A stretch of 64,000 nt of DNA from Candidatus Poribacteria bacterium (GTDB lineage Bacteria; Poribacteria; WGA-4E; PCPOR2b): contig OZ242351.1 in NCBI GenBank assembly GCA_965208675.1, forward strand, positions 4,384,001 through 4,448,000, in the 5' to 3' direction. A model generated the notes under the pieces. It was given only the letters and a program-made list of their open reading frames with translations. It was not told where the DNA came from and ran no database searches. A program made the position numbers and the translations under genes. Shown here piece after piece: positions 2,769-57,558 of this stretch (within the stretch, counting starts at the first letter, position 1; every line of letters starts with the position of its first letter).

Positions 2769-2825
2769 GATCAACTGAGCGAATAGCGAAGGATCAACCG
2801 ACCGAATAGGGAGGGCGATAGTCTT
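2769..2825 (+). repeat. GATCAA-N6-GAATAG...GCGATAGTCTT module (tandem form)
   Basis: Further copies at 1-15 (partial), 3750-3806, 5032-5088, 6577-6610, 8987-9043 (+) and 32665-32698, 44711-44744, 50698-50746, 57190-57238 (-). Confidence 0.9.
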
Positions 2826-2959
2826 TCCTAGTCTTCTCCTTTCCAGTCTTTTCTTGTCTTTTCCGAAACCCAACGATTGTGTAATATCGAGGCTAGGAAG
2901 CCTCTCCCACAGGGGAGGGTCGTGATTCGGAGATTGGTCCTAAGGGGTAAGCGATTGCG

Positions 2960-3151
2960 ATTCCCGGCGATGGTTTCGACCACTGCCGTTTACTTACGGC
3001 GTTCGGCTTCCTTCCGACTGATGAACCTGCCAGTTTATGCATCGCGACCGCCCGGCTTGCTGCCAACAACCTTTTCTACAGCCCGTTGAGCTTGTCTTTT
3101 TGTGAGTTTGCCGCGTTTGGGCGGGTTCTTAACGGTTCTTTCTCGTCCCAC
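2960..3151 (-). pseudogene. Degenerate paralog of the small basic protein at 3305..3556
   Basis: Manual translation from GTG 3151 (SD AGGTG): MGRERTVKNPPKRGKLTKRQAQRAVEKVVGSKPGGRDA*TGRFISRKEAERRK*TAVVETI, with in-frame TAA at 3035-3037 and 2990-2992. Confidence 0.8.
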
Positions 3152-3304
3152 TATTATCACCTTTTTGAATTATGTTTTAAACAACCGACGGTTGGGCTCA
3201 ATGGGGGTAAAATATGTCCGTTTGCCGTAAGATGGATTTCGGGGAAGACTAACGCCATCGCTATGGACTCCGATGACCCCGCTCCACCCAACTTACAAGG
3301 GCTG

Positions 3305-3556
3305 CTATCCTCGTTTATTCGGCCTCGTGATGGTCTCAACCACCGCCGTATCCTTCCGGCGTTCGGCTTCCTGACAACTGATAAACCTGCCCGTTGCTGC
3401 GTCGCGACCGACCTTAATGGTCGTTACATCATGATTCGCCGAAGACTTGCCGCCGCCGTTTTTGCCGAAAACGACCTCCCGTACGGCTCGTTTGATTTCG
3501 CTTCTTTTGAGCTTACCTTTTTTGGGTGGATACTTGACGATTCTTGGTCTTGCCAC
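3305..3556 (-). CDS. Small basic hypothetical protein with GRDAxTGRFI...TAVVETI motif
   Basis: Strong SD (AAGGAGGT) before GTG; protein-level similarity to the adjacent pseudogene paralog. Confidence 0.75.
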   Translation of the reverse strand: MARPRIVKYPPKKGKLKRSEIKRAVREVVFGKNGGGKSSANHDVTTIKVGRDAATGRFISCQEAERRKDTAVVETITRPNKRG

Positions 3557-3564
3557 GTAATCAC

Positions 3565-3633
3565 CTCCTTGAATTGTGAATCAAAGGGACAATTTAGAAA
3601 GACATTATCATTATAGTTTTTGGGTAAGCTCAT
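3565..3633 (-). pseudogene. Probable N-terminal remnant of a 'VFxNCPFD' hypothetical (TIR/Rossmann-like) gene
   Basis: MSLPKNYNDNVFLNCPFDSQFK resembles a conserved N-terminus (from recall), then runs into the SD of the next gene. Confidence 0.4.
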
Positions 3634-3916
3634 GATTTGCTCAGTTTATCTGTTAAATCCCTTTGGTCATAAAATTCAGGATAATATTATGCCATATTTG
3701 AAGGACATACATCAACGAAAACCAATTGCGAAAAAGCCGGCAATCAGGAGATCAACTGAGCGAACAGCGAAGGATCAACCGACCGAATAGGGAGGGCGAT
3801 AGTCTTTTCTTCTCCCGTCTTCGGGTTCTCCGTGGATTGGGATTTGTACGTCGTTTAGGTTTCTCAGAACGCGGCGTAAAATCGAAGGTCACTCGGTGAA
3901 AACCGCTCTACCCAAC

Positions 3917-4594
3917 CTACAAGAACTTACGGGCGACGACGACGGCGATGGGGCCTCGGCGCCAAACGCATTCGGCGTCGAATCCGGCGGTGCGGACGGC
4001 GTCGAGTTCAGCCTCCAGCGGGAAATAGGTGTCCTCCTCCGCCCATTGTGCGAAATATTCGCGCGCCCGCGGCTCCGCAATGCCGGAAGCTGCCATGTGA
4101 TCCATCCAGCTTCGCCAAGTCGCCTCGCGTTCCGGGGGCGCGGCTGGCATCGTCGCGTCGGCGTTGACGAAGACGCCGCCGGCTCGGAGCGCACCGTAAA
4201 TCCGCCGGTACAGGGCGCGCTTCTCGCCGATTGCCGGTATATGGTGGAGCGCCAACGACGCTGCGGCGGCATCGCAGGGCGGCAACGGCGCATGGAACGA
4301 CGACTCGGTGAATCGGGCGCGCCCGTCGAATCGCGCGAGCCGCGACCGGGCTTGCGCCAGCATGCCACCGTCGATGTCGATGAGTTCCACCGTCCCGGAA
4401 GCGTTCGCCGAGAGAATCGCCTCCGACAAGGCGCCGGTGCCCCCGCCGAGGTCGAGCGTCAAGCCCGGTTTTGCGCGGACAATTTCACGCGCGGCGACGG
4501 CGATCATCGTCTCGTAACCCGGAATGAAGCGGCGAATACTTTCGTCGTAAGTGCGGATTTCAATGCCGAGGTGGCGGTGTACGGAGTGGTTCAT
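3917..4594 (-). CDS. Class I SAM-dependent methyltransferase
   Basis: LDLGGGTG motif I, ASLALHH and GGVFVNAD motifs; start moved to ATG 4594 because the longer ORF overlaps the divergent promoter; visibly GC-richer than its flanks. Confidence 0.88.
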   Translation of the reverse strand: MNHSVHRHLGIEIRTYDESIRRFIPGYETMIAVAAREIVRAKPGLTLDLGGGTGALSEAILSANASGTVELIDIDGGMLAQARSRLARFDGRARFTESSFHAPLPPCDAAAASLALHHIPAIGEKRALYRRIYGALRAGGVFVNADATMPAAPPEREATWRSWMDHMAASGIAEPRAREYFAQWAEEDTYFPLEAELDAVRTAGFDAECVWRRGPIAVVVARKFL

Positions 4595-4631
4595 TGGCGT
4601 TTGAAGAAGGATGTGAGGTTTGGGGTTTGAG

Positions 4632-4661
4632 TTGACATTGTAACAAATCCAGTGGTATAAT
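4632..4661 (+). promoter_or_regulatory. sigma70-type promoter, cassette 1
   Basis: TTGACA-18 bp-TATAAT with extended TG; conserved in two other copies. Confidence 0.8.
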
Positions 4662-4715
4662 CGCAACCATTAGGGGAGTTGCAGTAGGGCCGCTTTTGGT
4701 TTGGAGGAGTGAAAA

Positions 4716-4904
4716 ATGGAGGTTTTTGCCAGCTACATACCCGTCGTTCTTATCGTGCTAGCCATAATTGCCAGTTATTGGCGAACGAGCACACAGTTGA
4801 GAGTAATAATGATGAATATGGTGACTAAAGACGACATTAGGGATCTGAAAGATGAATTCAGGGATTTAAGAAATGAGATGAAGGACATGAAAAATGACAT
4901 CTAG
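4716..4904 (+). pseudogene. Internally deleted, frameshifted paralog of the MEVFASY TM coiled-coil protein
   Basis: Same N-terminus as 5421 and 7018; the C-terminus HLVTEDNVEPAQPS* survives out of frame at 4898-4942. Confidence 0.75.
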
Positions 4905-4979
4905 TAACTGAGGACAATGTAGAACCCGCGCAGCCGAGTTAATCAGCCGTTACCGTTACATGGAATGACCTCTATTGAA

Positions 4980-5014
4980 CCGCCAGCCGTTGGTATATGC
5001 CAGCGGCTTTTTTT
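4980..5014 (+). terminator. Rho-independent terminator, cassette 1
   Basis: AGCCGTTGG-tatatg-CCAGCGGCT followed by a T-run. Confidence 0.8.
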
Positions 5015-5101
5015 GTGGATTGGATAGGAGGGATCAACTGAGCGAATAGCGAAGGATCAACCGACCGAATAGGGAGGGCGATAGTCTTCCATCTTGTATT
5101 T

Positions 5102-5132
5102 GAAACCGAGTTTTTCTTCAAAACTCGGTTTC
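5102..5132. repeat. Palindromic repeat GAAACCGAGTTTT-N5/6-AAAACTCGGTTTC
   Basis: Further copies near 6066, 7450, 7701, 9265 and 50823; half copy near 6622. Confidence 0.85.
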
Positions 5133-5338
5133 TTTAACGCAACGGTTGTTTGCCGGAATATGCCTGCTACTTTATCGCGGCTGGAAGCCGCTCCCACAAG
5201 GAATGGCTCGCGATTCGGAAATCGCTCCTACAGAGAAGTTTGCCTCTTAATCATAGCCCATCATTTAATCATACAAATCACAGTTCAGACACTAAGAATT
5301 CCCCTCAACCCAACCTACAAACAATATTGGAATTTGAG

Positions 5339-5368
5339 TTGACATGGTATCAAATCGAATGGTATAAT
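5339..5368 (+). promoter_or_regulatory. sigma70-type promoter, cassette 2
   Basis: TTGACA-18 bp-TATAAT. Confidence 0.8.
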
Positions 5369-5420
5369 CGCGTCCACAAGTCGAGGGGCAGAAGGATTCT
5401 TCGGATTGGAGGAGTGACAA

Positions 5421-5960
5421 ATGGAAGTTTTTGCCAGCTACATACCCGTCGTTCTTATCGTGCTAGCCATAATTGCCGGTTATTGGCGAACAAACATCCA
5501 AATTGGCGGTATGAACATGCAAATTGGCGGTATGATGGCAAATATGGCGACGCAAGAAGACATTAGGGATCTGAAAAATATAGTGGCGAATATGGCGACA
5601 AAAGAAGACATTCGGAATCTGAATAATATAGTGGCGAATATGGCGACAAAAGAAGACATTCGGAATCTGAATAATATAGTGGCGAACATGGCGACAAAAG
5701 AAGAACTTCGGGATATAAAAGAAGACATTCGGGAGATAAAAGAGGAATTCAGGTACATGAGAGATGAAATGAAGGACATAAGAAATGACATCAGGGCGCT
5801 GGACGACCGAATGAATCGTTTTGAAACGCATGTGACTCAACAGTTCGCCGAGATTAAGGGGGAAATCAGCGATTTGAAACGGGATGTCAATACGCTTCAA
5901 CAATCGTATGTAAATCACCTAATTACAGAGCATAACATCAAACCCGCACAGCCGAGTTAA
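5421..5960 (+). CDS. N-terminally membrane-anchored coiled-coil protein with 16-aa NMATKEDI repeats
   Basis: SD GGAGGAG; hydrophobic residues 8-20; four NMAT(K/Q)E(D/E) motifs at 16-aa spacing; heptad stalk; C-terminal HLITEH. Confidence 0.88.
   Translation: MEVFASYIPVVLIVLAIIAGYWRTNIQIGGMNMQIGGMMANMATQEDIRDLKNIVANMATKEDIRNLNNIVANMATKEDIRNLNNIVANMATKEELRDIKEDIREIKEEFRYMRDEMKDIRNDIRALDDRMNRFETHVTQQFAEIKGEISDLKRDVNTLQQSYVNHLITEHNIKPAQPS
5538..5705 (+). repeat. 48-bp intragenic tandem repeat (3.5 units)
   Basis: Units start at 5538, 5586, 5634 and 5682; units 2 and 3 are identical. Confidence 0.92.
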
Positions 5961-5997
5961 TCAGCCGTTACCGTTACATGGAATGACCTCTATTGAA

Positions 5998-6033
5998 CCG
6001 CCAGCCGTTGGTAATATGCCAGCGGCTTTTTTT
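5998..6033 (+). terminator. Rho-independent terminator, cassette 2
   Basis: Same hairpin and T-run as at 4980. Confidence 0.8.
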
Positions 6034-6137
6034 GTGGATTGGGATCAACCGACCGAATGCATTTGAAACCGAGTTTTTTCTTCAAAACTCAGTTTCTTTA
6101 ACGCACCGCCAAAACTCCGGTAACGCCGCACGCTGAC

Positions 6138-6166
6138 TTGAAAACTGTTGAATTTTATGGTATAAT
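6138..6166 (+). promoter_or_regulatory. sigma70-type promoter with no convincing downstream gene
   Basis: TTGAAA-17 bp-TATAAT with TGG extension. Confidence 0.6.
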
Positions 6167-6172
6167 TTTATC

Positions 6173-6355
6173 ATCATATGCGGCGCCCCGACGCCCTTCA
6201 AAGCGCGGTCGAGTTGCCCATTACCCGCGTCCCCGCCGAACGGCTTCCGAACGGAATGCCGGCAAGGCGCGGGCGAGGTTGACGCCGGTCCCATGCTCCA
6301 CGGTGTACGGAGCTACCTAGGATGGCGGAATCAACACACCCGGCATCCGCTTCAA
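6173..6355 (+). ncRNA. Candidate structured non-coding RNA
   Basis: GC-rich, several hairpins visible by eye, begins just after a promoter, no SD-led ORF. Confidence 0.35.
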
Positions 6356-6934
6356 AAATGAGCATTCTCAACTTATTTTTTTAAATGCTCACAAATGCTC
6401 AACCCCGCAAACCCGCGCCCTGACTAGCCTAAAGCCCATTTTCGCTTATTTTCGCATGTTTCAAATGCTCACATAATGCTCAAAACCAAAACCCAAATTT
6501 ACTATCCCTCAACCCGACCTACAAGAGCCCCACCGACCTACAAGAGCCTCAAAAAATCCTCCCCCTTTCCAAGGGGGATCAAGCGACTGAATAGGGAGCG
6601 CGATAGTCTTAACTAGTCTTCAAAACTCGGTTTCTTTTAACGCTTTGCTACACCCTGCGGTCGCGTAGGTTTGGGTGAGGGATTGGGTCGAGTACGCGAC
6701 GGGAGAGTTGCGATTCGGAGATCGCTCCTACAGGGGTGGAGGAGGACAACACATACCGCAAAAATTTCCCCCTTTTTTTATGGACTGTAAAAACTGTAAT
6801 TTTCCTTGAAAATTGTGCGATTGAATGCCGCGCTGTTGATATTCGCCGCTCGCCGCCCTGAACCCTTATAGTTATTGAAAGTTGAATTGCGCGAATCCGC
6901 TCTACCCAACCTACAAACAATACTGGAAATTGAG

Positions 6935-6964
6935 TTGACATTGTATTAAATCGAATGGTATAAT
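6935..6964 (+). promoter_or_regulatory. sigma70-type promoter, cassette 3
   Basis: TTGACA-18 bp-TATAAT. Confidence 0.8.
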
Positions 6965-7017
6965 CGCGTCCACAAAGTCGAGGGGCAGAAGGATTTCTCG
7001 GAGTGGAGGAGTGACAA

Positions 7018-7350
7018 TTGGAAGTTTTTGCCAGCTACATACCCGTCGTTCTAATAGTGCTAGCCATATTTGCGGCTAATTGGCGAACGACCGTACAGTT
7101 TGGACATATAACGATGAATATGGCGACTCGAGAAGATATTAAGGATTTGAGAGATGAAATCAAGGACATGAGAAGCGACATTAAAGCTCTGGACGCCCGC
7201 ATGAATCGTTTTGAAAACCATGTGACTCAACAATTCGCCGAAATTAGAGGTGAAATCAGCGATTTGAAACGGGATGTCAATACGCTTCAACAATCGTATA
7301 TAAACCACCTAATAACAGAGCACAACGTGAAACCCGTGAAACCGAGTTAA
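7018..7350 (+). CDS. MEVFASY TM coiled-coil paralog with one NMATREDI motif (TTG start)
   Basis: N- and C-termini near-identical to 5421..5960; purine-rich SD GGAGAG. Confidence 0.85.
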   Translation: MEVFASYIPVVLIVLAIFAANWRTTVQFGHITMNMATREDIKDLRDEIKDMRSDIKALDARMNRFENHVTQQFAEIRGEISDLKRDVNTLQQSYINHLITEHNVKPVKPS

Positions 7351-7381
7351 TCCGCTTGTGCAAGAAATGCCCTGTATCGCA

Positions 7382-7418
7382 CCGCCAGCCGTTGGTATAT
7401 GCCAACGGCTTTTTTTTG
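7382..7418 (+). terminator. Rho-independent terminator, cassette 3
   Basis: AGCCGTTGG-tatatg-CCAACGGCT followed by a T-run. Confidence 0.8.
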
Positions 7419-7938
7419 TGGATTGAGAGCGGCCGACCGAATTCATTTGAAACCGAGTTTTTCTTCAAAACTCGGTTTCTTTAATGCGACGGTTGTTTGC
7501 CGGAGAATGCCTACTACTTTATCGCGGCTAGGAAGCCGCTCCCACAGGTATACGAGTTGTGGGTCGCGATTCGGAGATCGCTCCTACAGGGGTGGCGCAG
7601 GACAACACATTCCGCAAAAATTTCCCCCTTTTTTTATGGACTGTAAAAACTGTAATTTTGGCATTTTTTGTAGGTTGGAATCAGCCGACCGAATTCATTT
7701 GAAACCGAGTTTTTCTTCAAAACTCGGCTTCCATCGCCGAGGTTTGTGCCATGTTGATGCTCATGGCAACCTCCATAGCCTGTCCCTCGCTGCCAAAAGC
7801 GAGAACCTCAAACGCAATGATAGATAATTAACTTGCTACCCGCTGTTTTGTCTTGATTTCTTGTTTACATAGCAAGTATAATTTAGCAATTCTGGTAAAT
7901 CGCGAAACTTTCCTCCTAGCCAAAAGAGGTCTCATACA

Positions 7939-8208
7939 ATGGAAGTCCTTGAAACTATTCGACCTTGGGTTGTACCTATCATTGCTATTGTCTCATTTGG
8001 CATAGCATTTGTTCCGAAATTTAATACGCGGTTTCGGGTCTGGGTAACGGGCCCGTTGGAAACTAAAGTTGATTTGTTGTCTGAAAAAGTCGACAATCTA
8101 TCAGAACAAATGAAAGAGATGCGTTCTGACATGAAAAACGAACATGCCATGTTGCTGAAGGCTTTTACTGACCATCTTATTCACCAGCATGGGCACAAGC
8201 CTGAGTAG
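7939..8208 (+). CDS. Small TM coiled-coil protein with His-rich C-terminus (distant relative of the cassette proteins)
   Basis: SD GAGG; N-terminal TM segment; heptads; ends DHLIHQHGHKPE; own terminator at 8233-8261. Confidence 0.75.
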   Translation: MEVLETIRPWVVPIIAIVSFGIAFVPKFNTRFRVWVTGPLETKVDLLSEKVDNLSEQMKEMRSDMKNEHAMLLKAFTDHLIHQHGHKPE

Positions 8209-8485
8209 CCAAACGGATTTTCATATCGAATTAAGCCGGGGGCAATGTTCCCGGCTTTTTTGTTGACGCAAAGATTCCCGTTTGTTGCGAGGTAGCCCGC
8301 CGCCAAGGCATGTCACTATCCGATATAATTCCCCAAAATGTACCACCCCTCAACCCAACCTACAAGAGCCCCAAAAAATCCTCCCCCTTTTTTTTATGGA
8401 CTGTAAAAACTGTAATTTTGCTTGAAATGTGCGGGTTTGATTTTCGTTCTGGTGATAATAGCCTCTCGACGCCGTGAGCACTCCT

Positions 8486-8761
8486 AGCTTTTGTAGGTTG
8501 GGTTAAGCGGAATAAATGAGAGACGCGAAAGATGCCGAATGGATATCGGTATTTGAACATGTGCGGTAATTGTTAGGGGTAGCGAACCCAACGCTTTTCG
8601 TTAATTGGGTGGTGTTCTGGTCATCGGGCGACGTTCGTAATTATGAAAAGCGTTGGGTTACGCTCCGTGGATCGGATATTGGATGTCGTTAGGTTTCCCA
8701 GAGCGTCACGTGGACTTGTACATCATTCGGTGAAATCCGCTCAACCCAACCTACAAAAGCT
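8486..8761. repeat. REPIN/MITE-like long inverted element (GTAGGTTGGGT family)
   Basis: Outer IR AGCTTTTGTAGGTTGGGTTAAGCGGA / TCCGCTCAACCCAACCTACAAAAGCT; inner IR AACCCAACGCTTTTC / GAAAAGCGTTGGGTT; homolog at 29014..29278 and many half-copies. Confidence 0.85.
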
Positions 8762-9356
8762 GTCCGTGGTCGTAGGGGCGGGGTTCCCCCGCCCATTGAG
8801 CGGCTGGAGGCGGCGAATTCCCGACCATACACATTTAATATGGGAACAAAGGGTTGGGGAACCCAACCCCTACGAATAATCGAATATTGGATGTCGTAAG
8901 GTTTCCCAGCGCGCCACGTGAAATTGTACATCATTCGATGAAATCCGCTCTACACCAACCTACAAAAGCTGTCCGTGGTCGTAGGGGATCAACCGACCGA
9001 ATAGGGAGGGATCAACTGAGCGAATAGCGAAGGCGATAGTCTTGTCTTCTCCGACACCCATCGATTGTATAGTATCGCGGCTGGGAAGCCGCTCCTACAA
9101 GAACTGGGAAAGTCGAATCGCGGCTGGAAGCCCCTCCCACAGGAGCGGGATTGCGATGCCCGGCGCAACGACAACAATAAATCCACATTTTTATGAAACC
9201 GCGATTTGGGGCAAAGCGTATTTTATTTGTACAATGTCAGGTTCAAGATCTAACTGAATAAAATGAAACCGAGTTTATTCTTCAAAACTCGGTTTCTAGC
9301 AGCCAAAACTCGGATTTTGGCATTACTGATATCCTGCGGAACTTGGCAGAAAAGTA

Positions 9357-9500
9357 TTGACAGATGTTAAAATCTGTTGTACTATGTAGCAGATTCTGAA
9401 GGCATGTGTCGGGGCGGTTTCGGCTGGGGCAAAAAGGGGCGAAAAACACCAAAAAAGTCCCAAGAAAAGTCTTGACAACTTGCGGGATCTGTTATATTAT
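9357..9500 (+). promoter_or_regulatory. Tandem sigma70-type promoters upstream of the first giant gene
   Basis: TTGACA-17-TACTAT (9357-9385) overlapping palindrome ACAGAT-N6-ATCTGT; TTGACA-17-TATTAT (9472-9500). Confidence 0.65.
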
Positions 9501-9864
9501 AGTTATGTGTTGCGTCAGGGCTGCGCGGCGAGTTTGCCGAGTGCCCGGGAGCGGCACGAGAATTACGGGCTTCATTCTAGACAGCTACTCTCTAGAGGAT
9601 CAACAAGCGGCACCCTCCGGAGACACGTTTTGAGTGAGGACAACATTTCAGTCAGTGTGTGGAGGGTGTTTCAACCCTCATGAGTGAGTCCCGAAAACCG
9701 GACGTGCGGGTTTCGGGGTTTTGTTGATTCTGTTGTTATGATTTATTGGAAAGGGAGACTAACCGATTATGGATAGTTCAACTAGGGCTTGCGAATCCAG
9801 CAAGCGAAACAGACTAAAATTCAATTCTTCAACATACAAACAAGCAAGGAGGAAACATAAAGTC

Positions 9865-12800
9865 ATGTTGAGTAGAATTTCGAAAATGAGTGTTTTCGGT
9901 ATCGTTGCGCTCATGCTCGTGCTCGGGCTGACGGCGGACGATGCGTTGGCACAAGAGGCTCCGGCTGCTGGAACTTATGCGATAAGCGTGGCATATGATC
10001 TAGACGGAACAGCGATCACAAATCTGCGCGCAGCGGGCACAGCTACGGTAACGTTTACCCTCACTGTCGCCGGTCGCGAAAATAAGGATGAGGGCGGCAC
10101 CAATCGGCCCAAAACTCCTACGGCGGCGCGGACGGTCCAGATTGACATTCCGGCAAATTGGTCCCCGCCTGCAAAAGCGTTATCCGGCGCTGATGCAGAT
10201 GAAGCGGGCGAGGTGAGGTTCCAAAAGGGTGGCACTACTATTACCAACAATGCCGACGCGTGGATTTCCAATGGCGGACGAACCTTGAATATCAAAATTG
10301 CCGAGGGAAACGCCGGTAACGGAGAATATACCGCCGAATACGCAAATGCGACTATACCTACCCGCAGGGGCAACCAGTACAGATTTTTCGTCAGAAACGC
10401 AGATGTCACCGAGTTGCCGTATGTCGTTGATTACGCAGTGAGCGGGTCGGGTAGAGTCTCGATGGGGCCGTTCAGCCCGTTGTCAGTCAAGGTTGGCGAT
10501 CCGGCAGCTGATCACGCCTATAACGGCGCGTACGTTTTCAAAAGCAAAGATCCAATAAGTCCGTTGAGGTTTACTTACACGGCGGCGGGTTCTTTGCCAG
10601 AGAATGCATACATTACCATAGCTATGGCTAATGGATTCACGCTTCGAGATAAACCAAAGTCGGTAGTGTCCGTGACCGGATCCGGTTCGCCGGAAATTTC
10701 ATTTCCGGATGAAGCCACTTTAGTTACTGAGACTGCGACCACGTTGCGCGCCACGGTAAAATCAAAAGGCGGACTGGGACCCAACCAGTCGTTTACCGTA
10801 ACCATTACAGGGCTTGCGGCACCGGAGGTTACTACGGCGCTAGATATTGACAATACCATTACGGTAAGTTCCGTGTCAGGTAATACGACTGCAGATTCTG
10901 CTCGTACTGCGGTTGTGCTTGAAACTCCTGCTGTGAATGTCCTCAAGACAGGGCAAGCAGCAGATGCGGCAGACGCAGTTAGAGGGAGATTCGACTTCTT
11001 TACGACCGCAGTCCCCGGCACCGGCGAACTCGCAATTATGCAAGGTACGGACGCCCGTCAAAACACGCGCGTCGAGGAAGGGTTTGATTTAGGCACGTTG
11101 CGGTTTGACATAACCGGCACGACCGGTATGGGACCGAATGCCAAATTTCAAATTGTGGTTCCGGGCGCGCCTTGGCCCGCGCCGATTAAAGCGCCTGACA
11201 AGATTGGTGTCCCCGGCAGCGCGGATACCGCTGGACACGTTATCAACGGCGATGTTAACACCGGGGCTCGCACAATCAGCGGAAGCCTTACAACAAACGC
11301 AAATCCTCCCGTGGCTAATACAGAATTGACCAATGCTGGGGGTGGGATTACCTACCGAGTCGGGGCAATATCGGAACATGGCAAGCATGAGTTCAGGCTT
11401 TTGACAAGTTCCGGCCACCCAAGCGCCGACGGCGGTTCCTTGGTAGAGAGAACCGGTGGCGGTTACCGCCGGTATATTGAAGTCACGGCGAAGCACGGCA
11501 GCGGTACGTTTGCTGTTTTGGAGAATGGCGTGCCGTTAGCGCAGTCAAAACCGGCAGCCGAGCATACCCTCCAGTTAGTCTACACCGCCTCTGGCCGCAT
11601 GCCTCAAGGAACGGTTCAGTTTGTGGTTCCGGCGAATTCGGATCCGGTGAGTGACCCGGCGCTGCCGTGGAAACTGCCGCGCCGCGACAACGGCGTTGCC
11701 CCGTTTGAAGAAGGCGAGGTGACGTTTAGCAATAACGCGACGTTTACTGTCGGTACCGACGGGGTTATCACCGCGACAGGATCGTGGGGACCAGGCGCCC
11801 AAATAATAGTTACATACAGGGGCAAGGTGCCGGGCGCTGGGGACTCTACTCCGCAGACATACAAGTTTAGGGCGAGAGCATCGTCGTTTAATTCGGGCGA
11901 TCCTGCCGTGCCTAACTGGCCACAGAATGACGCTAATGAAGATGTCTATCTTGAGCATACGATTGGTCCCAATCGCGCGGCAGACGGCAGCGGTACGCTC
12001 GCAATTGAGCCGCGGACAGCGAATGCCAGCGAGACGATTGATTTGAAGATAACTTACAAAGCCGCGGGCACGATGGATGACGGATCAATTGTTGAGGTTA
12101 CCGTTCCCAATGGTTGGCCCGATCTCGTTGCGTCATCGGTCGGAGTTGGCGTCGAAGGCATCGCGGCAACCTTAAGTGTAGGGACGAGGGCGATTACCGC
12201 TACCACCGCTGATCAGATGAATGCGGATTCCATACTCGTGCTCAACGTGGCGGGAGTTGTGGCGCCGGCTGTCGGCGGGGGTTACCAGTTCACGGCGCAA
12301 TCAAAATCTCACGGAGGGCTGCAGTCTCTTACCGCTGCGCAGATTACCGACGCAGTCGTCACTGTTAGCGAACGGGCTTCCGGTTCCGCCGTGCTTACGC
12401 TGTTGAGGGATGACGGTTCGACAGCGGATTCTGTCGAACCCATGGATTCGTTTGAATCTGCCAAAATCGTTTTCACGGCTGGCGTGGCGATGCAACCCGG
12501 TGCGGAAGTTAAGGTCACGATTCCGGATGGCTGGATGCAAAGGCCTTTCGAGGACAACGGTATGCCGCGCACGAGCGGCGAGGTTACGCTTGAAGGGAAG
12601 GCTGATCTTGATGTCCAAGGCGACGTGCTAGTCGCTAAGGCGAACGCTCAGATTAACGCTGGCGAAACCGTGACGTTCACCTACCATATGCCGATGGCGC
12701 CTGCAGACCCAACAACATCGAATTTCGAAACCGTGGCGTCAATTGTCGAAGGCGGGGGATTACTCTCGGTTGCAAATCAGCAAACGAGCGTGGTCGTCAG

Positions 12801-17423: not shown

Positions 17424-20400
17424 GTGTTAAACATCATGAGTAGGGGAAGACTCGTATGGTATTTGTTTTTGGTTGCGCTCACAAGCGGATTGATGGTGGG
17501 CGTAGCAGGGTCGGTCGAAGCCCAGACGACGCGGACGTTTATCCTGCACGGTACGGTCACGGATAATGACGGCGGCGTGCTCGAAGGGTACACCGTGGAA
17601 GCGCCGAACGACGCTTCCGACCTTGCAACTGTGGCGAAAACGGACCCATCAGGGGAATACAGGATTGTATATAACGCCATCTTTGCTTCGGCGGTAATCG
17701 GCGTTGGCGACGCAATCGAGATAACGGTCAAAGACCCTGATGAGCAGGTTGTAGCGAGAAAATCGTATACCGTCACACTGGCGGATATAGATAGAGAGCC
17801 GCTCTCTGGCGTAGAAATTAATATCCAGTTGTCGGGCTTGAACGCTGAACTGGAGCCAAGCCAGTTGCCGGCGGATGGCGTTTCGACGACGACGATAACC
17901 GTTTCGGTTGACTCTGGCGGCGCGCCGGTGACGGACGACACAGTGACAATTACGGCGGAACAGGGCAGCGTCGGCGAGGTGACGAATAACGAGGACGGCA
18001 CGTATACGGCAGAATATACGGCGCCGGCGTTGGTGCTCACCGAGTCGGTAATGGACACGATTACGGTTACCTCGGGTACGACAGGCGACACGACGACGAC
18101 GGTGGTAACATTGGATGTGGTTCCAACGGTCATCTCGGTGTCGGTCGATCCGAATGTATTCATCGCCGGTGCCGGGGCGGCTGGCGCGGTTCAAATCACC
18201 GCCAATCGAGGAACGAACCCCGTAGCGGACGCGGACATTTCATTGGGTCTCAGACGCGCCGACGGCGGATCTGATACCGGAACAGTCACGGGCGTGACGA
18301 GGAACGGGGATGGCACATACAGCGCGACATACACGCCGCCGAATACCGCGGGGCAGATTAACATTACCGCGTCGGACGCGGTTTCCGGTGAGAGCGGGAT
18401 GGCGTCGGTTACCGTGAATGCGGGCGCAGCGGCGTCGGTTTCGGTGACTGCGGCGCCGATGACGGTTTCGAGCGGCGGCAGCGCTATGATTACCGCCATG
18501 GTCATGGATGCGTCGGGGAACGGCGTCGGCGGATTGGCTCCCAGCGGCTCGGCGGAGAGCGGCACGGTCGGCGAGTTCAGCGCCGGCGCTGCGTTCGGAA
18601 GCTACCGCGCAACGTATACTGCGGGCATGGTTGAAGCGGCTGGGGTGGATACTGTTACCGTTATCGTCGGCGATTTGTCCGGTCAGGTGTCGATTAGCCT
18701 CACACCGGAACCGCCGAAAGAGGTATCAATTCTTGCGGTCTCCGGCACGGTATACAAAAAAGACGGCACAGGACCTGTCAGCGGCGTGAACGTCGAGGTT
18801 ATGGTCGGCGATATGGCGCCGCAGACGTCGCGGTCGGGCAGCAACGGACACTACAGCGTCACTTTCGTTAATCCGGGCGGCGTTGCGGGACGCACCGGCG
18901 ATATGGTCTCGGTTGTTGTCACAGACGACGCCGGCATGGAACGCGGACGGAACGATTCGATGCCGTTGACGAGCGATGAACTCGGCGACGATACCTCCGC
19001 CAATGTCGTTCGAGATGTAACTACCGATATCTTGGCGCGAACCAACGCGTTGGTGGTCACCGGTTCGGTATTCCGCGAAGAAAGCGCGGTTCCGATTGAC
19101 GACGTGTTCGCGATTACGGTGATGAACACCACCCGCGGGACGGAAATGTCCGGCATGACGGACGCCAACGGTGCGTATAACTTGACCTTCTTCGGTACGT
19201 CGGTGGTTGCGGAAACGGGAGACGAATTAGTTGCGACGGCTTCGAGAGACGGAGGCGAATGGAGCAGCCCGGCGCATGCGCTGTCATCGGACGAGGTAGA
19301 AGCAGGCAGAGCCACCGTGAACGTGCCGACCGACATCAAGGCGTCGACGAACGCGCTGGTGGTGAGCGGTACGGTTTACTTTGAGGACGGAACAGTTGCA
19401 GTTGGCGCCGGCGTGACGGTCACATCAATGAATGCCGGGAAAGGGCAGGAAGCCACCGGCGAGACCGACGGGAACGGAAATTACAGCGTGACCTTCTTCA
19501 ACGCGGATGGACTGGTTGCAGAAACCGCAGATATTATAACGGTGACAGCAGTGCACGGCGACCTAGGAGACGGCACGGCGGAGCATTCCCTCACATCGGC
19601 TGAAGTGGACGCGCAGCGCGCTACGGTAAATGTAACGACCAGCGTGAAGGCGTACACGTCGACATTGGTGGTGACGGGTGCGGCGTACTACGAAGGCAGC
19701 ACGATTCCTGTCGGCGCCGGTAACACGGTCACGATAATGAACACCGCGAACGGCATGGAAATGTCCGGCATGACGGACGCGAGCGGGATGTATAACGTCA
19801 CGTTCTTCAGTGCGGAGGGTGCGGTCGCGGAAACCGGCGACATGCTGACCGTTACGGTGGATGCCGGCGAGGATGGCAGCGGCAGCGCCGACCATACGCT
19901 GACGGCAATGGAGATTGACGCACAGCGCGCTATAGTGAATGTGCCGACGAACATCAAGGCGACTTCGCCGACGTTCCTTGTGACGGGGGTCGTTTACTTG
20001 GAAGACGGCATGAGCGGCGCCCCGGCTGGATTGACCGTTAAAGTCGTGAACGAAACGCGGGGAATTAACGCCAGCGGAATCACAGTAGCGGGCGGCGGAT
20101 ACAATGTAACCTTCTTGGAGACCGAGGCGGCGGCGGTGAAGACCGCGGACGTGTTGGTGCTCGACGTGTACGTAATGGCTGCCGATGATACGTCAGTCGG
20201 TCAGACGACAATAACATTAACATCCGCCGACGTAGTTGGGAACAGAAGAGACGGCGTCGATATCACGACCAGCCTGACGGCTGACCCGACGAACGCATTT
20301 GTGGTAGACGGCATGGTCATGGATCCTTCCGGTAACGCTGTCGGCGCGGGTGTTAATGTGCGCTTAACTTTGAACGATCACCCAACGAAGGAATTGGAAA

Positions 20401-32168: not shown

Positions 32169-32826
32169 CCCGATAACCTCCATTTCATGATATTATACCA
32201 CAATGCCGCCCAAAATGTCGAGTTTTCGTATGTTGGGCTGAGGGATTGACGGAGTACGTGTGGAGGGCGTCGCGATTCGCAGATCGCTCCTACACGGGGT
32301 TGACGGTAAAGGGAGGAGTGTGTGCGCGGTATCGAATCACTCCCCTCCTTCGAAGGAGGGGTTAGGGGAGGTTAAAGATGGTGTGGTGGGAGAATTGAAC
32401 GGGTTAGGTTTTATGGTTGGTGCAGCGTTACCCGACGGTTTTGGTTAATCTGAAGGCATTTAGGTTATCGGAAGCGGTACGAACATATGAAAAGCGTTGG
32501 GTTTGCTGCGGCAAATATATTATGTGTATTACCGCAAATCTGGCAGGTGCTTTTCGCATGGAGCGTAGTAGCAGGTACCCGCTTAACCCAACCTACAGGA
32601 ACTGGGTTTCAAATAAAGATCGCGATTCGGAGGTTGGTCATACAGATGCAGGTGATTGATAGTGAAGACTATCGCCTTCGCTATTCGCTCAGTTGATCCC
32701 CCTCAGTCCCCCCTTGGTAAGGGGGGAGGATTATGTGAGTGGCTTGGTAAAGGGGGAGGAGTGTGTGCGCGGTATCGTATCATTCCCCTCCTTACGAAGG
32801 AGGGGTTAGGGGAGGTTGGCGATGCT

Positions 32827-36856: not shown

Positions 36857-37436
36857 GGATTGTAGTTTATCTTTGGGTTTCGGAGAAGACTGTCTGAACT
36901 GTGATTTTTGTGATTAAATGATGGGGTATGATTGAGGGAGGCATTTGGTGTTGGCGGCGGTGTGGGTGTTTGGTAGTCATTTGGGATGGGAGAGGTTTCA
37001 AAAGAGTTGGGTTTCGCTCGATTCATCGGGATTTGTGCGCGGTTAGGTTGACGGTGGCGTTTCGTTTTATTGCGCGGTTTTTGGGTGAATTCGCTCTACC
37101 CAACCTACAGGAGCTGCGGTTAACTCGTGATGCGCGTTGTGGTAAATCTGGCACGTAATTTTCGCACGGTAGTTATTAGCAGTTACCCGCTTAACCCAAC
37201 CTACAAGAACTGAAATCAGGAAAGGCGACGGAGCGGGTTGAGATTTGGGACCATTCAAAATTTTCAATGGTTGTTTTGAATGCGGGAGGTCTTAAAAGCG
37301 TTGGGTTTCGCTACATGGATTTTACGAATGCGGCATGCCGGAGTTTTAACGTTGCGTGGGTGTAGTAACGGCATTAGGGTTATCCGCTCTACCCAACCTA
37401 CAGAAGCTAAAAGAACTTTTGTGATAAGGATTAGAC

Positions 37437-44678: not shown

Positions 44679-44811
44679 TACGGTTAGGCGGCAGATCGGG
44701 ACTGAAAGTCAAAACTATCGCCTTCCCTAATCAGTCAGTTTATCCTCCTTGGCAAGGGGGAGGATTCACTGCGCAATCCGTTCTGGTTGAACTCCGCGTT
44801 TCTGGCGGCGA

Positions 44812-44840: not shown

Positions 44841-44882
44841 CTGAAAATATAATGTAATTTTTAATCTGGCAAATTTGAGAAT

Positions 44883-48666: not shown

Positions 48667-48712
48667 CGAATATTGGCGGAGCCGCGCAGGGATTCCAAAT
48701 TGATTCGGCTGG

Positions 48713-50557: not shown

Positions 50558-51207
50558 TTTATTTTATTCCCTTTCAGACAAAGAAATTTATGCGATTTAG
50601 AGGAGGTAATTTCAAGCTTGTTTGAAAAATGGGTGACAAAGCCATTCTTGTGCGTTTGAGTTCGTATAACCGGTGTAACATCTATCGCGCGGGATTTACT
50701 ATCGCCCTCGCTATTCGTTCGGTTGATTCTATTCAGTCGCTTGATCCCCGCCTATCGAGGGTAGTGGGGTAATATACGCCTGCCGCCACTCTTGGGCTTT
50801 GATGAATGCAGATACCATTAAAGAAACCGAGTTTTGAAGCTAAATACTCGGTTTCAAGTTTCATTATGCAAAATGTCAAGCAACTACTGGACCAGCCCAA
50901 ATATTTTATTCGTTTATTGTTTCTCGGTCAACAGAAATATTTCGAAGCGGGGTTTTGTTTCCGGGTTGAGAACACCGCCCTTATTGGCATTTTCAACGCA
51001 TATCTGGCGGCCATTCTACTTGATATGTTTGGCGTGGTGGTATATTATAGCTTCTGCGTTTGTGACTACGGATTTAGATGCCGCGATACGTAGAGGTCGC
51101 GATTCGGAGATTGTTCCTACGGCGCAAGGGCAGAGGCTGTAATAAGGAGATGTCTCCTACAATAGTTATTTTGACTGCAAAACAGTGAATATAATCCTCC
51201 TCTCGCA

Positions 51208-54078: not shown

Positions 54079-54145
54079 CATGTTTGTCTACAAGTTAGGT
54101 GGCTTGGATTAGGTAACATAAAACCTCCGCATAAAAATACTTGTC

Positions 54146-55549
54146 ATGTCCGATTGTTTTGTTCAACGTGTAACCTGCTATATCCGAGAACATCAAATGA
54201 TTCAACCGGGGGAAATTGTATTGGTGGGCGTCTCCGGCGGCGTAGATTCGCTTTCACTGCTGTATTGCTTGCACGAATTACGGCATGAAATCAACTGTTT
54301 TCTCCACGTCGCACATTTAGACCACGGCATTCGTCCTGATTCGGCTGCGGACGCGGCGTTTGTTTGCAAACATGCGAATCGGCTGAATTTGGAAATTTCC
54401 GTCGAAAGCGTGGACGTGCCGCAAATGATGAGGCATCAAAAACTCTCAGTAGAGACGGCAGCTCGAAACGCACGGTTCAGTTTCTACGAAGGTGTTTCTG
54501 AACAGATTGGCGCGACGAAGGTTGCACTGGGGCATCATCGCGGCGATCAATCGGAAACTGTTCTAATGCGCTTATTGCGCGGCGCCGGTTCGATTGGCCT
54601 CAGAGGCATGCTTCCGGTTCGAGACGGAAAGTTCATCCGCCCGTTTCTCAATTTTTCGCGGGAAGAGATTGAAGCGTTCGCAGCGGAACTCGGCCTGCAA
54701 CCGCGGCGGGATTCGACAAACTATGATCCGAATAACCTTCGTAACCGCATCCGTTTAGAGTTGATTCCGTTGTTAGAACAGTCCTATAATCCGAATCTTC
54801 AAAACACGGTAAACCAAACTGCGGAGTTGCTGCGCGTTGAGTCAAACTACTTAGAGGGGATTGCTCGAGATGCTTTTCAAACGTGCCGCGAAAGCCCTGA
54901 TGTGACTGATGTTGTTGTGTTGAATCGCCAGACCTTCCTTAGATACCATCTCGCCGTGCGTCAACGCATCTTGCGCTGTGCTATCGGGGAAATTTCGGGT
55001 AATTTGAGGCGATTTTATTTTAATCACTTTGCGGCGATGTTAAAATTGATTGAGGGGGAATCGCCCAATGCTTCATTGGATTTACCCGGTAATCTGCGAC
55101 TGCAACGCGCATATAATCAGCTAATTTTTCAAAAATCAGTATATGCTCCTAACGAGTTTGAATATGAGGTGGCTGTGCCGGGTTCGACAGATTTGCCGCT
55201 GTTAAAGGCACGAATGATTGCTACCGTTGGGGCGTCCCAACCTGCGAAATTACCTGATGGCAAATTACGGGCGGTGTTCGATTCTCTCCAATCTCCGCTT
55301 AAACTACGCAACCGACGGGCAGGCGATCGATTTCAACCATTTGGTATGCAGGGCACCAAAAAGGTTAAGGATTTTCTTATTGATTCGAAAGTTCCCCGCC
55401 AAGAGCGATACCGAGTTCCAATTCTTGTGAGCGGCGAGGAAATCGCGTGGGTTGTGGGACATCGGACGAGTGAGCGGTTTAAGGTCGGAGATGGGACAAA
55501 GCGTTGCGTCTATCTAGCTTATACGCCGTACGATAAGTTGGCGGATTGA
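54146..55549 (+). CDS. tilS: tRNA(Ile)-lysidine synthetase
   Basis: SGGVDS PP-loop; HLDHG; GHHRGDQSET; RNRIR. Confidence 0.96.
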   Translation: MSDCFVQRVTCYIREHQMIQPGEIVLVGVSGGVDSLSLLYCLHELRHEINCFLHVAHLDHGIRPDSAADAAFVCKHANRLNLEISVESVDVPQMMRHQKLSVETAARNARFSFYEGVSEQIGATKVALGHHRGDQSETVLMRLLRGAGSIGLRGMLPVRDGKFIRPFLNFSREEIEAFAAELGLQPRRDSTNYDPNNLRNRIRLELIPLLEQSYNPNLQNTVNQTAELLRVESNYLEGIARDAFQTCRESPDVTDVVVLNRQTFLRYHLAVRQRILRCAIGEISGNLRRFYFNHFAAMLKLIEGESPNASLDLPGNLRLQRAYNQLIFQKSVYAPNEFEYEVAVPGSTDLPLLKARMIATVGASQPAKLPDGKLRAVFDSLQSPLKLRNRRAGDRFQPFGMQGTKKVKDFLIDSKVPRQERYRVPILVSGEEIAWVVGHRTSERFKVGDGTKRCVYLAYTPYDKLAD

Positions 55550-55553
55550 ACAA

Positions 55554-56135
55554 TTGCCGACCGAGATGTCTGCACAAATGTATGTCCGAACAAAAGAAAT
55601 GCCAACAGCAAAAAAATCTCAGACGCAATCAATTTTAATCACCGAATCACAAATTCGCGGACGAGTCCGTGAATTAGGGAGGGAAATTTCCGGCGATTAC
55701 GCCAATTGCGACCTTGTGCTTCTCGGCGTACTCAAAGGCGGCGTTGTGTTCTTTTCCGATCTCATGCGTGCCATTTCTATTCCCGTCCGGTGTGAATTTG
55801 TCCAAATTGAGAGTTACGGTGCTAACAGTGTTTCATCGGAGAATGTCCAAGTCATCCACAGCATTAAAGGAGATCTTCGCAAAGCAGATGTTCTCGTGGT
55901 GGAGGACATTGTTGATACCGGACATTCATTGAACTTTCTCATGAAATATGTCAGTACGCTGCAACCAGCGAGCATAAGGGTGTGTAGTTTGCTCGACAAG
56001 CCCGGGCGGCGGGTGGTTCCGGCTTCCATTGACTATGTGGGATTTGAAATTGATGATGTTTTTGTAATCGGTTACGGTTTGGATTATAATCAGCAGTACC
56101 GCAATCTTCCGTACGTTGCGGTGTGCGATGATTGA
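55554..56135 (+). CDS. hpt: Hypoxanthine phosphoribosyltransferase
   Basis: VLKGG, VLVVEDIVDTG and GYGLDY motifs; follows tilS; true start may be further downstream. Confidence 0.95.
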   Translation: MPTEMSAQMYVRTKEMPTAKKSQTQSILITESQIRGRVRELGREISGDYANCDLVLLGVLKGGVVFFSDLMRAISIPVRCEFVQIESYGANSVSSENVQVIHSIKGDLRKADVLVVEDIVDTGHSLNFLMKYVSTLQPASIRVCSLLDKPGRRVVPASIDYVGFEIDDVFVIGYGLDYNQQYRNLPYVAVCDD

Positions 56136-56297
56136 AAATAGTGCTCCGAGACTGCTCATTTACAACCATCTTGCCGGTGATTTCAGAATGGCTAATCAGC
56201 GGCAATCGGATTAGTTTTTCGTTGACAGCGCATAAACCTACTGATAATATACTGACCGTTATTTTGCATTCATAAACTTCCAAAATGTCAAGAGGAG

Positions 56298-57074
56298 ATG
56301 CTAATGCGTAATGTTAAAGGTGTTGTAATAGTTACAATCTTGATTCTCCCGCTCGTAGCGGTGGCAAGCGCGGAGATGTCCGAAAAAGCTCAAATGGGCC
56401 GTGAACTATTTTACGACCCCTCGTTCGGCGGCACACTCGAACCTCAAAAAGTTAGCGGCCTAGCTTGCGCACATTGCCACGCTGATTTTGATGAAGACGC
56501 GAACCCTGACGGAAAAATTCGGGCGGGACACAGCATAATAGGCGTGCCGCACCGCGGCGAGGCGAAAGGCGGGATGATTAAGGCGGATATATTCCGGCGC
56601 GCTGCGGGCGGCGGCGGGTTCTGCTATCAGCATTTCTTACAGCGGATTCCCGAAGATAAGGTCGATCCTATTGCCATCCCGGAGGAACAAGCAGAAGCCT
56701 TGATGGCTTATTTTGAACATGTTTCCGGGGATAACAAGGGGCCGGAATTCGAAATAAAGATGCTTGACAGAGAGGCTGCAGCCGAGGCGGCCGAGAAGAT
56801 TCTGGCGATGAAGGGTGACCCGAAGGAGGGTTGGAAACTCTTCAGCAGAGCTTGTAACGATTGCCATCCAACGGCTAAAAAAGCGGGCATCGGCACGCAG
56901 CTTGTGCGGAGAAGACCGCCTTCCAACATGAAAAAATGGAAGGTCAACATCGCTGCAAAGGTCCGCGGCGGCGGCTTTATTATGCCATTCTACGGTGAAG
57001 ATCGGTTGTCCGACCGAGACATCTCTGATATTGTGGCGTTTCTGGAAAAGTTAGTTACTGAAAAGAAGAGATAA
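56298..57074 (+). CDS. Periplasmic dihaem cytochrome c
   Basis: Signal peptide; CAHCH and CNDCH haem motifs; distal FC and MP candidate ligands. Confidence 0.9.
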   Translation: MLMRNVKGVVIVTILILPLVAVASAEMSEKAQMGRELFYDPSFGGTLEPQKVSGLACAHCHADFDEDANPDGKIRAGHSIIGVPHRGEAKGGMIKADIFRRAAGGGGFCYQHFLQRIPEDKVDPIAIPEEQAEALMAYFEHVSGDNKGPEFEIKMLDREAAAEAAEKILAMKGDPKEGWKLFSRACNDCHPTAKKAGIGTQLVRRRPPSNMKKWKVNIAAKVRGGGFIMPFYGEDRLSDRDISDIVAFLEKLVTEKKR

Positions 57075-57558
57075 ACGCATTAATACGCTGCTCTACTTAG
57101 AGCCTGTTTGAATAATAGGTAACAACGCCATTCTTGGGCGTTTCGGTTAGTTTCACTGGTGGAAATTCTATAACGCGAGCACGGGATTCACTATCGCCTT
57201 CGCTATTCGAAAAGTTGATCCTATTGGGGCGCTTGATTCCGCCAAATACCTTTCTCCAGCATTGGGCGGGGCAAGATGCCCCGCCTACGGAGGGTAGTGG
57301 CGTACTATACGCCTGCCGGCCCTCTGGTGCTGTATAAAATGAATTTTCAAACAAGTTTTTATTGTTGTGCGATTCGGGTTTCGCACAATCGGGGCGATGA
57401 TAGTAGTTCTCGGCTAAGCGCAACTGGAAATCTGTTAAATTACCACCTGCATTCCCTACGCCGCTACCTAAAATAGAAACGCCTGCCGCGGGCAGCATTA
57501 TGCCGCGGATTCCGCACCAGCTCAATGTGCTAAATACAGCGGCGCTGACCCCGCCCGT

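Follow-up and report, generated by a model that had tools for sequence, protein, structure and literature searches.

How a repeat of a few tens of nucleotides without coding capacity comes to lie in many copies inside other repeats, and inside copies of itself, is the question raised by the 64,000-nucleotide stretch of contig OZ242351.1 from a Candidatus Poribacteria bacterium that was analysed here (the window). The repeat has the core GATCAA-N6-GAATAG and is found on both strands. A sequence-only reading of the window had regarded it as a non-palindromic unit, either the scar or substrate of an enzyme encoded elsewhere or a bipartite protein-binding site spread by recombination. In the present study, we examined the repeat in the window, in the complete genome to which it belongs (G000, a single contig of 4.89 Mb with 49% G+C), and in other Poribacteria. 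With moderate confidence, we consider that the observations taken jointly are best explained by a non-autonomous micro-element of Poribacteria, consisting of one or more hairpin modules (M1) and a tail (M2), that is copied in trans.

The repeat is real and has many copies. The core, with at most one mismatch, matched the window 13 times against 0.28 expected, and the tail word GCGATAGTCTT matched nine times against 0.75 expected; none of 100 shuffles reached either number. The monomers seen earlier at 6577, 32665, and 44711 were found again, the last being degenerate, and the order of the two modules A and B in the doublets was as first read (A-B at 2769, 3750, and 5032; B-A at 8987). The 18-nt truncated unit ahead of a full unit was likewise found at both places claimed for it. 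An eleventh array spans the window start, with its tail at 5-15. The copies are as follows.

1..15, plus strand: M2 tail (GCGATAGTCTT at 5-15) of the array that starts before the window (genome copy at 4383855).
2769..2825, plus strand: array M1(A: CTGAG/CGAAG)-M1(B: CCGAC/GGAGG)-M2, preceded by a repetitive extragenic palindrome (REP) cut short after GTGGGAGC; the M2 stutter TAGTCTT, AGTCTT, GTCTT extends to about 2861.
3750..3806, plus strand: array M1(A, GAACAG variant)-M1(B)-M2.
5032..5088, plus strand: array M1(A)-M1(B)-M2.
6043..6058, plus strand: relic half module (GATCAACCGACCGAAT) fused to a terminator-like hairpin (family D17); more degenerate half-module relics lie at about 7427 and 7679.
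6577..6610, plus strand: monomer M1 (GCGAC/GGAGC)-M2, followed by a second TAGTCTT.
8987..9043, plus strand: array M1(B)-M1(A)-M2, 3' of ..GTCGTAGGG.
32665..32698, minus strand: monomer M1(A)-M2 after the hairpin CCCCCCTTACCAAGGGGGG; this 34-mer is found 23 times in the genome.
44711..44744, minus strand: degenerate monomer GATAAA CTGAC T GATTAG GGAAG GCGATAGTTTT (..GTTTT).
50675..50746, minus strand: self-nested long form inside a composite block of about 200 nt, at a host-hairpin apex; 18-nt truncated M1 (50729-50746), full M1 (AATCAA leader), then GCGATAG-TAAATCCCGC-GCGATAG...
57165..57238, minus strand: self-nested long form at the apex of the host hairpin GGTATTTGGCGG/CCACCAGTGA; 18-nt truncated M1 AATCAAGCGCCCCAATAG (57221-57238), M1 with a broken stem (CTTTT), then GCGATAG-TGAATCCCG...TATAG.

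Short-read contigs of run X1 (389-2794 and 2797-3795) crossed the junctions at 2769, 2825, and 3750 with no differences, a support that is not independent because X1 may be the source sample.

The genome scan that had been proposed for the core and the tail gave 150 exact cores and 112 exact tails in G000. M1 is a 23-nt module made of the leader GATCAA and a 17-nt imperfect hairpin, and one to three M1 modules are followed by M2, which may itself be iterated. By our own criteria, 262 modules formed 221 arrays (183 single, 35 double, and three triple), all multimers being direct tandems and not inverted doublets, and GCGATAG terminated 180 of the 221. In genus g1, M2 reads GCGATAG-TCTT/TTTT, often followed by partial repeats of itself (TATAGTCTT, AGTCTT), which are the (G)TCTT "stutter" noticed earlier; in a second genus, g11, it reads GCGATAG-nRATCCC and is also iterated. 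Units are 34-57 nt long and have no coding capacity, which agrees with the earlier suggestion of a non-autonomous unit that is copied and nested without a gene of its own.

The description as non-palindromic did not survive, since the N6 spacer pairs with the five nucleotides 3' of GAATAG and covaries with them to give an imperfect hairpin (for example, CTGAGC-CGAAG, CCGACC-GGAGG, GCGAAC-TGAGT, and GCGACT-GGAGC). The fold can be written N1N2-GA-N5-Y [GAAUA] G-N5'-GA-N2'N1'; that is, the stem has two outer covarying pairs, a tandem G.A/A.G, one further covarying pair, and a Y-G pair that closes a five-base loop. To quantify the pairing, we aligned 98 distinct units (alignment A1), of which 94 came from other Poribacteria and four from the window; the invariant columns carry no weight as conservation because the units were picked by pattern and these columns are invariant by construction. 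At the variable positions, 95.4% of cells paired, against 65.5% in shuffles (none of 500 matched the observed value), and double-sided changes were seen in 152 cells where 34 were expected. Controls in which the partner positions were slid gave 22-57% pairing. All three variable stem pairs were standard in 114 of the 150 exact cores of G000, and the G.A positions were retained in 134 and 133 of them. The signal is specific to one strand: pairing fell from 95.4% of cells on the GATCAA strand to 83.2% on the opposite strand, with 56 G.T against 8 A.C combinations. Paired changes on the GATCAA strand thus maintain the hairpin. The minimum-energy fold as RNA recovered the covarying hairpin and added an outer helix, in which ATC pairs with GAT of GCGATAG in monomers and GATC pairs with the next GATC in tandems. 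The GAAUA loop closed by Y-G resembles GNR(N)A pentaloops such as phage boxB. No Rfam family matched the window at its gathering score, and at E<=1 within 2600-9200 the sole match was mir-642, outside the element. An intrinsic terminator was considered and rejected, as the stem has four standard pairs plus two G.A pairs and seven bases (GCGATAG) stand before TCTT/TTTT.

Next to be considered is where the element occurs. A scan of one genome per species with a 30-nt pattern gave at least 128 stretches, and all 80 among the matches listed were from Candidatus Poribacteria. The pattern was present in 11 of 41 relatives and, in a sample of the phylum, in 16 of 151 Poribacteria genomes; the reversed pattern, used as a control, was found in none of the 151. 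All four genomes of g1 carried 76-95 copies, and all nine of g11, which belongs to another family, carried 64-263. Elsewhere, the pattern was found in two of 20 genomes of g5 (one and eight copies) and in the single genome of g4 (one copy), and it was found in none of the 100 genomes of family f2. In this sample, high copy number is therefore confined to the two genera g1 and g11. A viral vector was rejected, with no matches in viral contigs. The available parts of the Poribacteria literature on repeats and REP-associated tyrosine transposases (RAYTs), including PMC8546597, gave no description of such repeats.

The units occupy the apices of REP-type hairpins, the centres of miniature inverted-repeat transposable elements (MITEs), and their own loop, and the 5' neighbours of arrays are halves of other repeats. 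The earlier view that the element joins and cuts short other repeat families, with (G)TCTT stutter at its 3' end, was confirmed. Empty paralogues of the host repeat were available for 34 of the 221 arrays, and in these the unit replaces 4-9 nt at the apex of the host hairpin, with no target duplication in any of the 34 filled/empty pairs. The replaced bases, set between bars, can be seen in the sites ..CTGATAAGG|GGGGCTAG|GGGGG.., ..GTCGAG|GCAGG|GATGCC.., and ..AATCGAG|GCTAGGA|AGCCTC.., in ..GGGTAGAGC|CGAAG|GCGAAACCC.., which is the short form of a long-loop GTAGGTTGGGT repeat, and in ..CCCAAC|GCTTTTC|AAACCTC.., which is the centre of the palindromic doublet of the same repeat. The element's own hairpin is a target in the same way (..GAATAG|GGAGG|GCGATAG..), and such insertion into its own loop gives rise to the 18-nt truncated units. 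In g11, the REP at the RAYT stop codon, in two of three gene copies, has the form AAAGCCCCAGCGGG|M1-M2|CACAGGTG, the intact form being AAAGCCCCAGCGGGGCGACAGGTG, and further REP classes are split after GTAG, GTAGGGTGC, or GTAGGCGGG. In total, the element was found in at least ten unrelated host repeats, and over all the sites 2-9 host bases were replaced. Its orientation is fixed relative to each host repeat: in six host families of G000, 57 units were forward and none was reverse, a count that shows only the lack of the inverse arrangement because the host strands were chosen after they had been seen upstream of the element.

Comparison with the sister species G002, whose genes are 85-96% identical to those of G000, showed that copies are gained and lost between the two. 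At 3750, G002 carries the B module alone, so that the difference is exactly one 23-nt module. The 2769 mosaic is wholly missing from the orthologous G002 site, where an unrelated hairpin stands. Of the nine loci that lie wholly inside the window, four (3750, 44711, 50698, and 57190) have an orthologous G002 copy and five (2769, 5032, 6577, 8987, and 32665) have no copy at the orthologous place; the negatives for 5032, 6577, 8987, and 32665 rest on BLAST rows against the syntenic 80 kb of G002 and not on site alignments. In the case of the 32665 composite, the matching G002 block flanks the neighbouring gene on its opposite side. The 44711 copy is present in G002 and not in G001, where the spacer has diverged. 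The copies at 50698 and 57190 are common to G002 and lie within composite blocks of about 200 nt that are missing from G001 and G003; in the 50698 copy, G000 has C-G as the second stem pair where G002 has T-A. In the syntenic 80 kb, G001, G002, and G003 hold their own copies at other places. The commonest 34-mer, which occurs 23 times in G000, occurs 10, 15, and nine times in G001, G002, and G003, respectively. As the genes of these species are 75-94% identical, the occurrence of identical 34-mers despite gene divergence of 6-25% indicates that the family is kept uniform by ongoing copying or conversion.

The position of the arrays relative to genes bears on a different explanation, in which the repeat functions above all at the RNA level, as a signal (a protein site or an exonuclease block) in 3' untranslated or intercistronic RNA, and is spread passively with its carrier repeats. 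With a crude home-made gene finder, which leaves about 17% of G000 outside its calls, 204 of the 221 arrays were clear of genes, 11 overlapped a gene edge, and six were inside. In gaps between co-directional genes, 110 arrays were in the sense direction and 39 in the antisense direction, counts that are not independent because arrays cluster. Under a slightly stricter filter, 105 sense arrays lay at a median of 154 nt 3' of the upstream stop codon (16 within 30 nt and 38 within 100 nt of it), and two were within 30 nt of the next start; among antisense arrays, two of 39 lay within 30 nt and three of 39 within 100 nt of a stop. A replication-strand bias was rejected, since the GC skew shows no clean replichores, the arrays split 113 to 108, and gene strand follows no replichore pattern. 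A search for RNA records over window 1-10000 gave none. An RNA signal would account for the sense bias, the clustering after stop codons, the G.U-rich pairing on one strand, and the RNA fold with its outer ATC/GAT or GATC/GATC helix, and PMC3733652 places most REPs downstream of genes and considers their transcription plausible. We nevertheless regard it as unlikely to be the primary role, because turnover of the roughly 220 arrays between sister species is fast, nesting in the loop destroys the first hairpin, 39 copies are antisense, the repeat is restricted to two genera, and no Rfam family matches.

The insertion sites suggest a further explanation without a dedicated enzyme. Host nucleases of the SbcCD type break the hairpin tips of palindromes, and such breaks could be repaired by gene conversion or template switching from insert-bearing paralogues, the insert acting as a palindrome breaker. 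The replacement of 4-9 host bases at apices without target duplication, the exchange of whole mosaics at the same site between sister species, the tail stutters and half modules, and the absence of an enzyme that co-occurs with the element are all in keeping with it. It leaves unexplained the paired changes that preserve the hairpin of the insert itself, the occurrence of the insert in no fewer than ten unrelated host repeats, its fixed orientation (57 of 57), and its absence from other Poribacteria genera in which the same REPs and RAYTs abound. For these reasons, we consider repair as the sole cause quite unlikely. An RNA role and repair-driven spread could also act together with mobility.

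Of the two possibilities named by the sequence-only reading, the bipartite protein-binding site fared less well. A site read in double-stranded DNA (GATC as a Dam/SeqA-type site, or a site for integration host factor, IHF) would suit the invariant blocks GATCAA, GAATAG, and GCGATAG separated by variable bases, and ATCAA is the core of the IHF consensus WATCAANNNNTTR, as in the IHF-binding bacterial interspersed mosaic elements (BIMEs) of E. coli. The variable bases, however, covary as a hairpin on one strand, which a duplex site does not need, and the TTR part of the IHF consensus is missing, CTGAGCG or CCGACCG following ATCAA. We keep such a site as a very improbable rival. Copying via RNA, with a reverse transcriptase stuttering over the tail, is hardly tenable: the tail tracts do stutter and most copies are sense, but RVT_1 gave no match in G000, G002, G032, and G035, each with 64-263 copies.

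Other enzymes were also searched for. The HUH domain Y1_Tnp was found in 36 of the 41 relatives, including every carrier, and gave four matches in G000, three of them above the cut-off. One Y1 transposase gene of G000, of 163 aa, lies at 3522614-3523105. IS110 and TnpB were not found in G000; DDE transposases gave 11 matches, and the element has neither inverted ends nor target duplications. Of the enzymes named in the earlier reading, HUH Y1 proteins are present in all carriers searched, RVT_1 was not found in the four genomes searched for it nor IS110 in G000, and the two RAYT types tested showed no specific co-occurrence. Two such RAYTs were considered as partners. P0001 is a 157-aa RAYT of G000 (2029858-2030328; L155:858-1328) flanked by its own AAAGCCCCAGCGGGGCGACAGG REPs. 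Among the 41 relatives, homologues of 82-89% identity seemed confined to carriers, the closest apparently lying in genus g11; this subclade was rejected as the partner on the 151-genome sample, where identities of 82-87% recur in many genomes without the element. P0002 is a 180-aa RAYT of G001; its gene, in the segment syntenic to window 6-7 kb, has inverted M1-M2 units on both sides, an arrangement not shared by its homologues in G003 and genus g5, which are flanked by GTAGGTTGGGT long-loop REPs. It was rejected on account of these flanks and because G000 and G002 have no homologue.

P0001 is 82-87% identical across the Poribacteria families f1, f2, and f3, and the copy in G001, of the same genus, is just 69% identical; to judge from these identities, the gene would be either unusually conserved or moving between lineages.

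Returning to the micro-element, its hairpin covaries on a specific strand, its subfamilies have their own stems, its units nest, and its copies turn over and yet are kept uniform; from these features together we infer that the unit must fold to be copied, and hence that it is a non-autonomous mobile element. The hairpin may be the recognition signal for copying, and transfer is probably of single-stranded DNA, which would enter hairpin repeats at their exposed loops. The agent would most plausibly be a trans-acting HUH Y1 transposase of the RAYT type, because this is the only candidate class present in all carriers searched and because the host repeats are RAYT substrates. The layout of leader, hairpin, and GCGATAG parallels that of the local REPs, and the targets are REP hairpins; on these grounds, the mechanism most likely to apply appears to be transfer of single-stranded DNA by a Y1 transposase in trans. 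The bias toward sense copies after stop codons may mean that, as with REPs, the hairpin is tolerated or put to use in 3' untranslated RNA. It is possible, and we propose it tentatively, that M1-M2 is a hyperparasite of REPs, that is, a single-stranded DNA transposon of 23-37 nt that borrows the host RAYTs or uses another enzyme that only the two genera share. If so, it would be among the smallest mobile DNAs known, recognised via a hairpin with G.A pairs and inserting into the loops of hairpin repeats and of itself.

Several observations weigh against mobility of this kind. The earlier reading had expected the copies to be linked to one transposase, recombinase, or reverse transcriptase family, and this was not borne out: the RAYT genes of G000 are flanked by REPs other than M1-M2, no enzyme is linked to the element, and neither RAYT type tested co-occurs with it specifically. 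The P0001 clade (at least 82% identity) is present in many genomes of family f2 without the element in the 151-genome sample, and P0001 was not found in G002 or G003, which both carry 76-95 copies; P0002 was likewise not found in G000 or G002, carriers with the same range of copies. The element also lacks the GTAG tag that RAYTs recognise. As for the sites, slippage between two GATCAAC repeats could have deleted the 23 nt by which the two species differ at 3750, and repair or template switching would account for the replaced host bases just as transposition would. No excised circle was seen, nor an empty allele at identical flanks; contigs of runs X5-X7 (Logan) break inside the element, and the joints listed are repeat-to-repeat jumps that give no usable alleles. 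The comparison of filled and empty sites across relatives that had been suggested gave a precise module difference at 3750 and two sites that are empty in G001 and G003. Finally, the thermodynamic signal is weak (z of -0.4 to -2.2 as RNA and about 0 as DNA), so the structural evidence rests on covariation.

Beside the element, the window contains other repeats and unusual loci. Long-loop REPs consist of CTT-GTAGGTTGGGTWRAGCG, about 70 nt, and then GCGAAACCCAAC; they are found genome-wide and are often paired into palindromic doublets of about 260 bp (terminal word 210 times, centre word 89 times). Those in the window, together with the classical GTAG REP GTAGGAGCGATCTCCGAATCGCGAC and the GTGG-tagged REP GTGGGAGCGGCTTCCAGCCGCGAT, both of which have many copies, are as follows.

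37-135, 3829-3927, 8663-8761, 29185-29283, 32952-33050, 35438-35536, 37017-37115: long-loop REP copies.
2727-2755, 5207-5236, 6706-6736, 7562-7592, 32268-32298: GTAG or GTGG REP copies.

The long-loop REP flanks the P0002-type RAYT on both sides in genus g5, and this RAYT type is therefore probably its partner; G000 has the repeats without a P0002 homologue. An integron attC reading of this REP was rejected, as GTTGGGT...ACCCAAC has the opposite polarity. The GTAG REP GTAGGAGCGATCTCCGAATCGCGAC is split by the micro-element directly after GTAG in genus g11. A terminator-like palindrome family, AAACCGAGTTTTTCTTCAAAACTCGGTTT, lies at 5100-5133, 6064-6097, 7447-7480, 7699-7732, and 9264-9297, three of its copies being fused to micro-element half modules. 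Between 2700 and 9700, small ORFs (110-250 aa), all on one strand, stand between repeat mosaics; some have weak DUF2730-like coiled-coil matches, and the content differs by whole blocks between G000 and G002. In the syntenic region of G001, one RAYT gene is accompanied by part of another copy. In G002, the region orthologous to window 44745 (L136, about G002:4260140-4260690) has, right beside the shared micro-element, a tandem array of about 500 bp; each unit of about 40 nt joins a spacer to GGGGCAAGATGCCCCGCCTAC, a REP-like hairpin whose GTAG tag is on the other strand, and no such array stands there in G000. Coding tandem repeats are found as 33-nt (11-aa) units at 31532-32088, in an apolipoprotein-like gene (31278-32183, minus strand), and as 273-nt units at 25074-25961, in an ORF of 3131 aa (17424-26819, plus strand).

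Among known systems, MITEs can be set aside, because the GATCAA and GCGATAGTCTT ends are not inverted repeats and the 34 filled/empty pairs show no duplication. An attC site of an integron was likewise rejected for the element itself, which lacks RYYYAAC...GTTRRRY cores; no search for an integrase was made. The ends of IS200/IS605 elements such as IS608 and ISDra2 are subterminal imperfect hairpins that are read as single-stranded DNA, with strand-specific insertion and without inverted terminal repeats or target duplication. M1-M2 resembles them in its imperfect hairpin on one strand, without inverted ends or target duplication, and the M1 leader contains TCAA, whose complement TTGAT resembles IS200/IS605 cleavage or target words. 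It differs in that no TnpA gene lies between two end hairpins, the unit has a single hairpin within 23-37 nt, and host bases are replaced.

The sequence-only reading saw no likeness to a REP, a view that did not hold, as the element is built of leader, hairpin, and tail like the REPs that flank the local RAYT genes. These have an A-rich leader, a hairpin, and a GCGACAG/GCGATAG..TATAG tail, and the GCGATAG tail of M1-M2 resembles theirs. Like REPs, BIMEs, and REP doublets forming hairpins (REPINs), it is an imperfect palindrome of 20-40 nt with conserved flanks, hundreds of intergenic copies, and mosaic arrays, according to the available parts of PMC3116915 and PMC3733652. It shares with the GTAG-tagged REPs the short imperfect palindrome and the high copy number between genes (221 arrays). 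It has no GTAG/CGTC end tag, as all 98 aligned units begin with GATCAA and end with GCGATAG(TCTT), and the GTAG upstream belongs to host repeats. Inverted M1-M2 on both sides of a RAYT gene (the REPtron arrangement) was found only in G001, and the direct tandems are not the inverted doublets of REPINs. Whereas a REP regularly flanks its RAYT gene, M1-M2 does not, and it sits inside REPs as a guest. PMC3733652 describes REPs inside other palindromes (section 7), REPs mostly downstream of genes, REP families that have no transposase of their own, and transposase genes that do not clearly correlate with repeat families; in our judgement, all these features fit M1-M2 here.

To our knowledge, mobile DNAs of 23-37 nt that carry no gene, lack inverted ends, and duplicate no target are limited to very few cases (the small dispersed repeats, SDRs, of cyanobacteria), and we know of no mechanism for any of them. 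SDR1-8 of Nostoc punctiforme and relatives were reportedly described by Elhai et al. in 2008 (Genome Res 18:1484). On that description, the likeness lies in units of about 21-27 nt with a small hairpin, high intergenic copy number, no gene or known enzyme, and insertion into other repeats and their own copies, which is seen here as filled and empty sites. The likeness is one of description; the host phylum is Poribacteria and not cyanobacteria, and M1-M2 has a tandem G.A hairpin, a separate iterated tail, direct tandem arrays, and targets at REP apices. The SDRs of Nostoc are also cited in PMC3116915. The Poribacteria offer a second, independent system, with a covarying tandem-G.A signature and defined targets at REP hairpin tips. 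Together with the filled and empty sites of sister species and a sharp contrast between carrier and non-carrier genera, these features make the search for the enzyme tractable through comparative genomics and simple assays on oligonucleotides, and annotation is also concerned, as the approximately 17% of the genome outside our crude gene calls is built from such mosaics. In our analysis, the best reading of M1-M2 is that of an SDR/REP-like non-autonomous micro-element, whose closest analogues appear to be the SDRs of Nostoc and the REP/RAYT systems.

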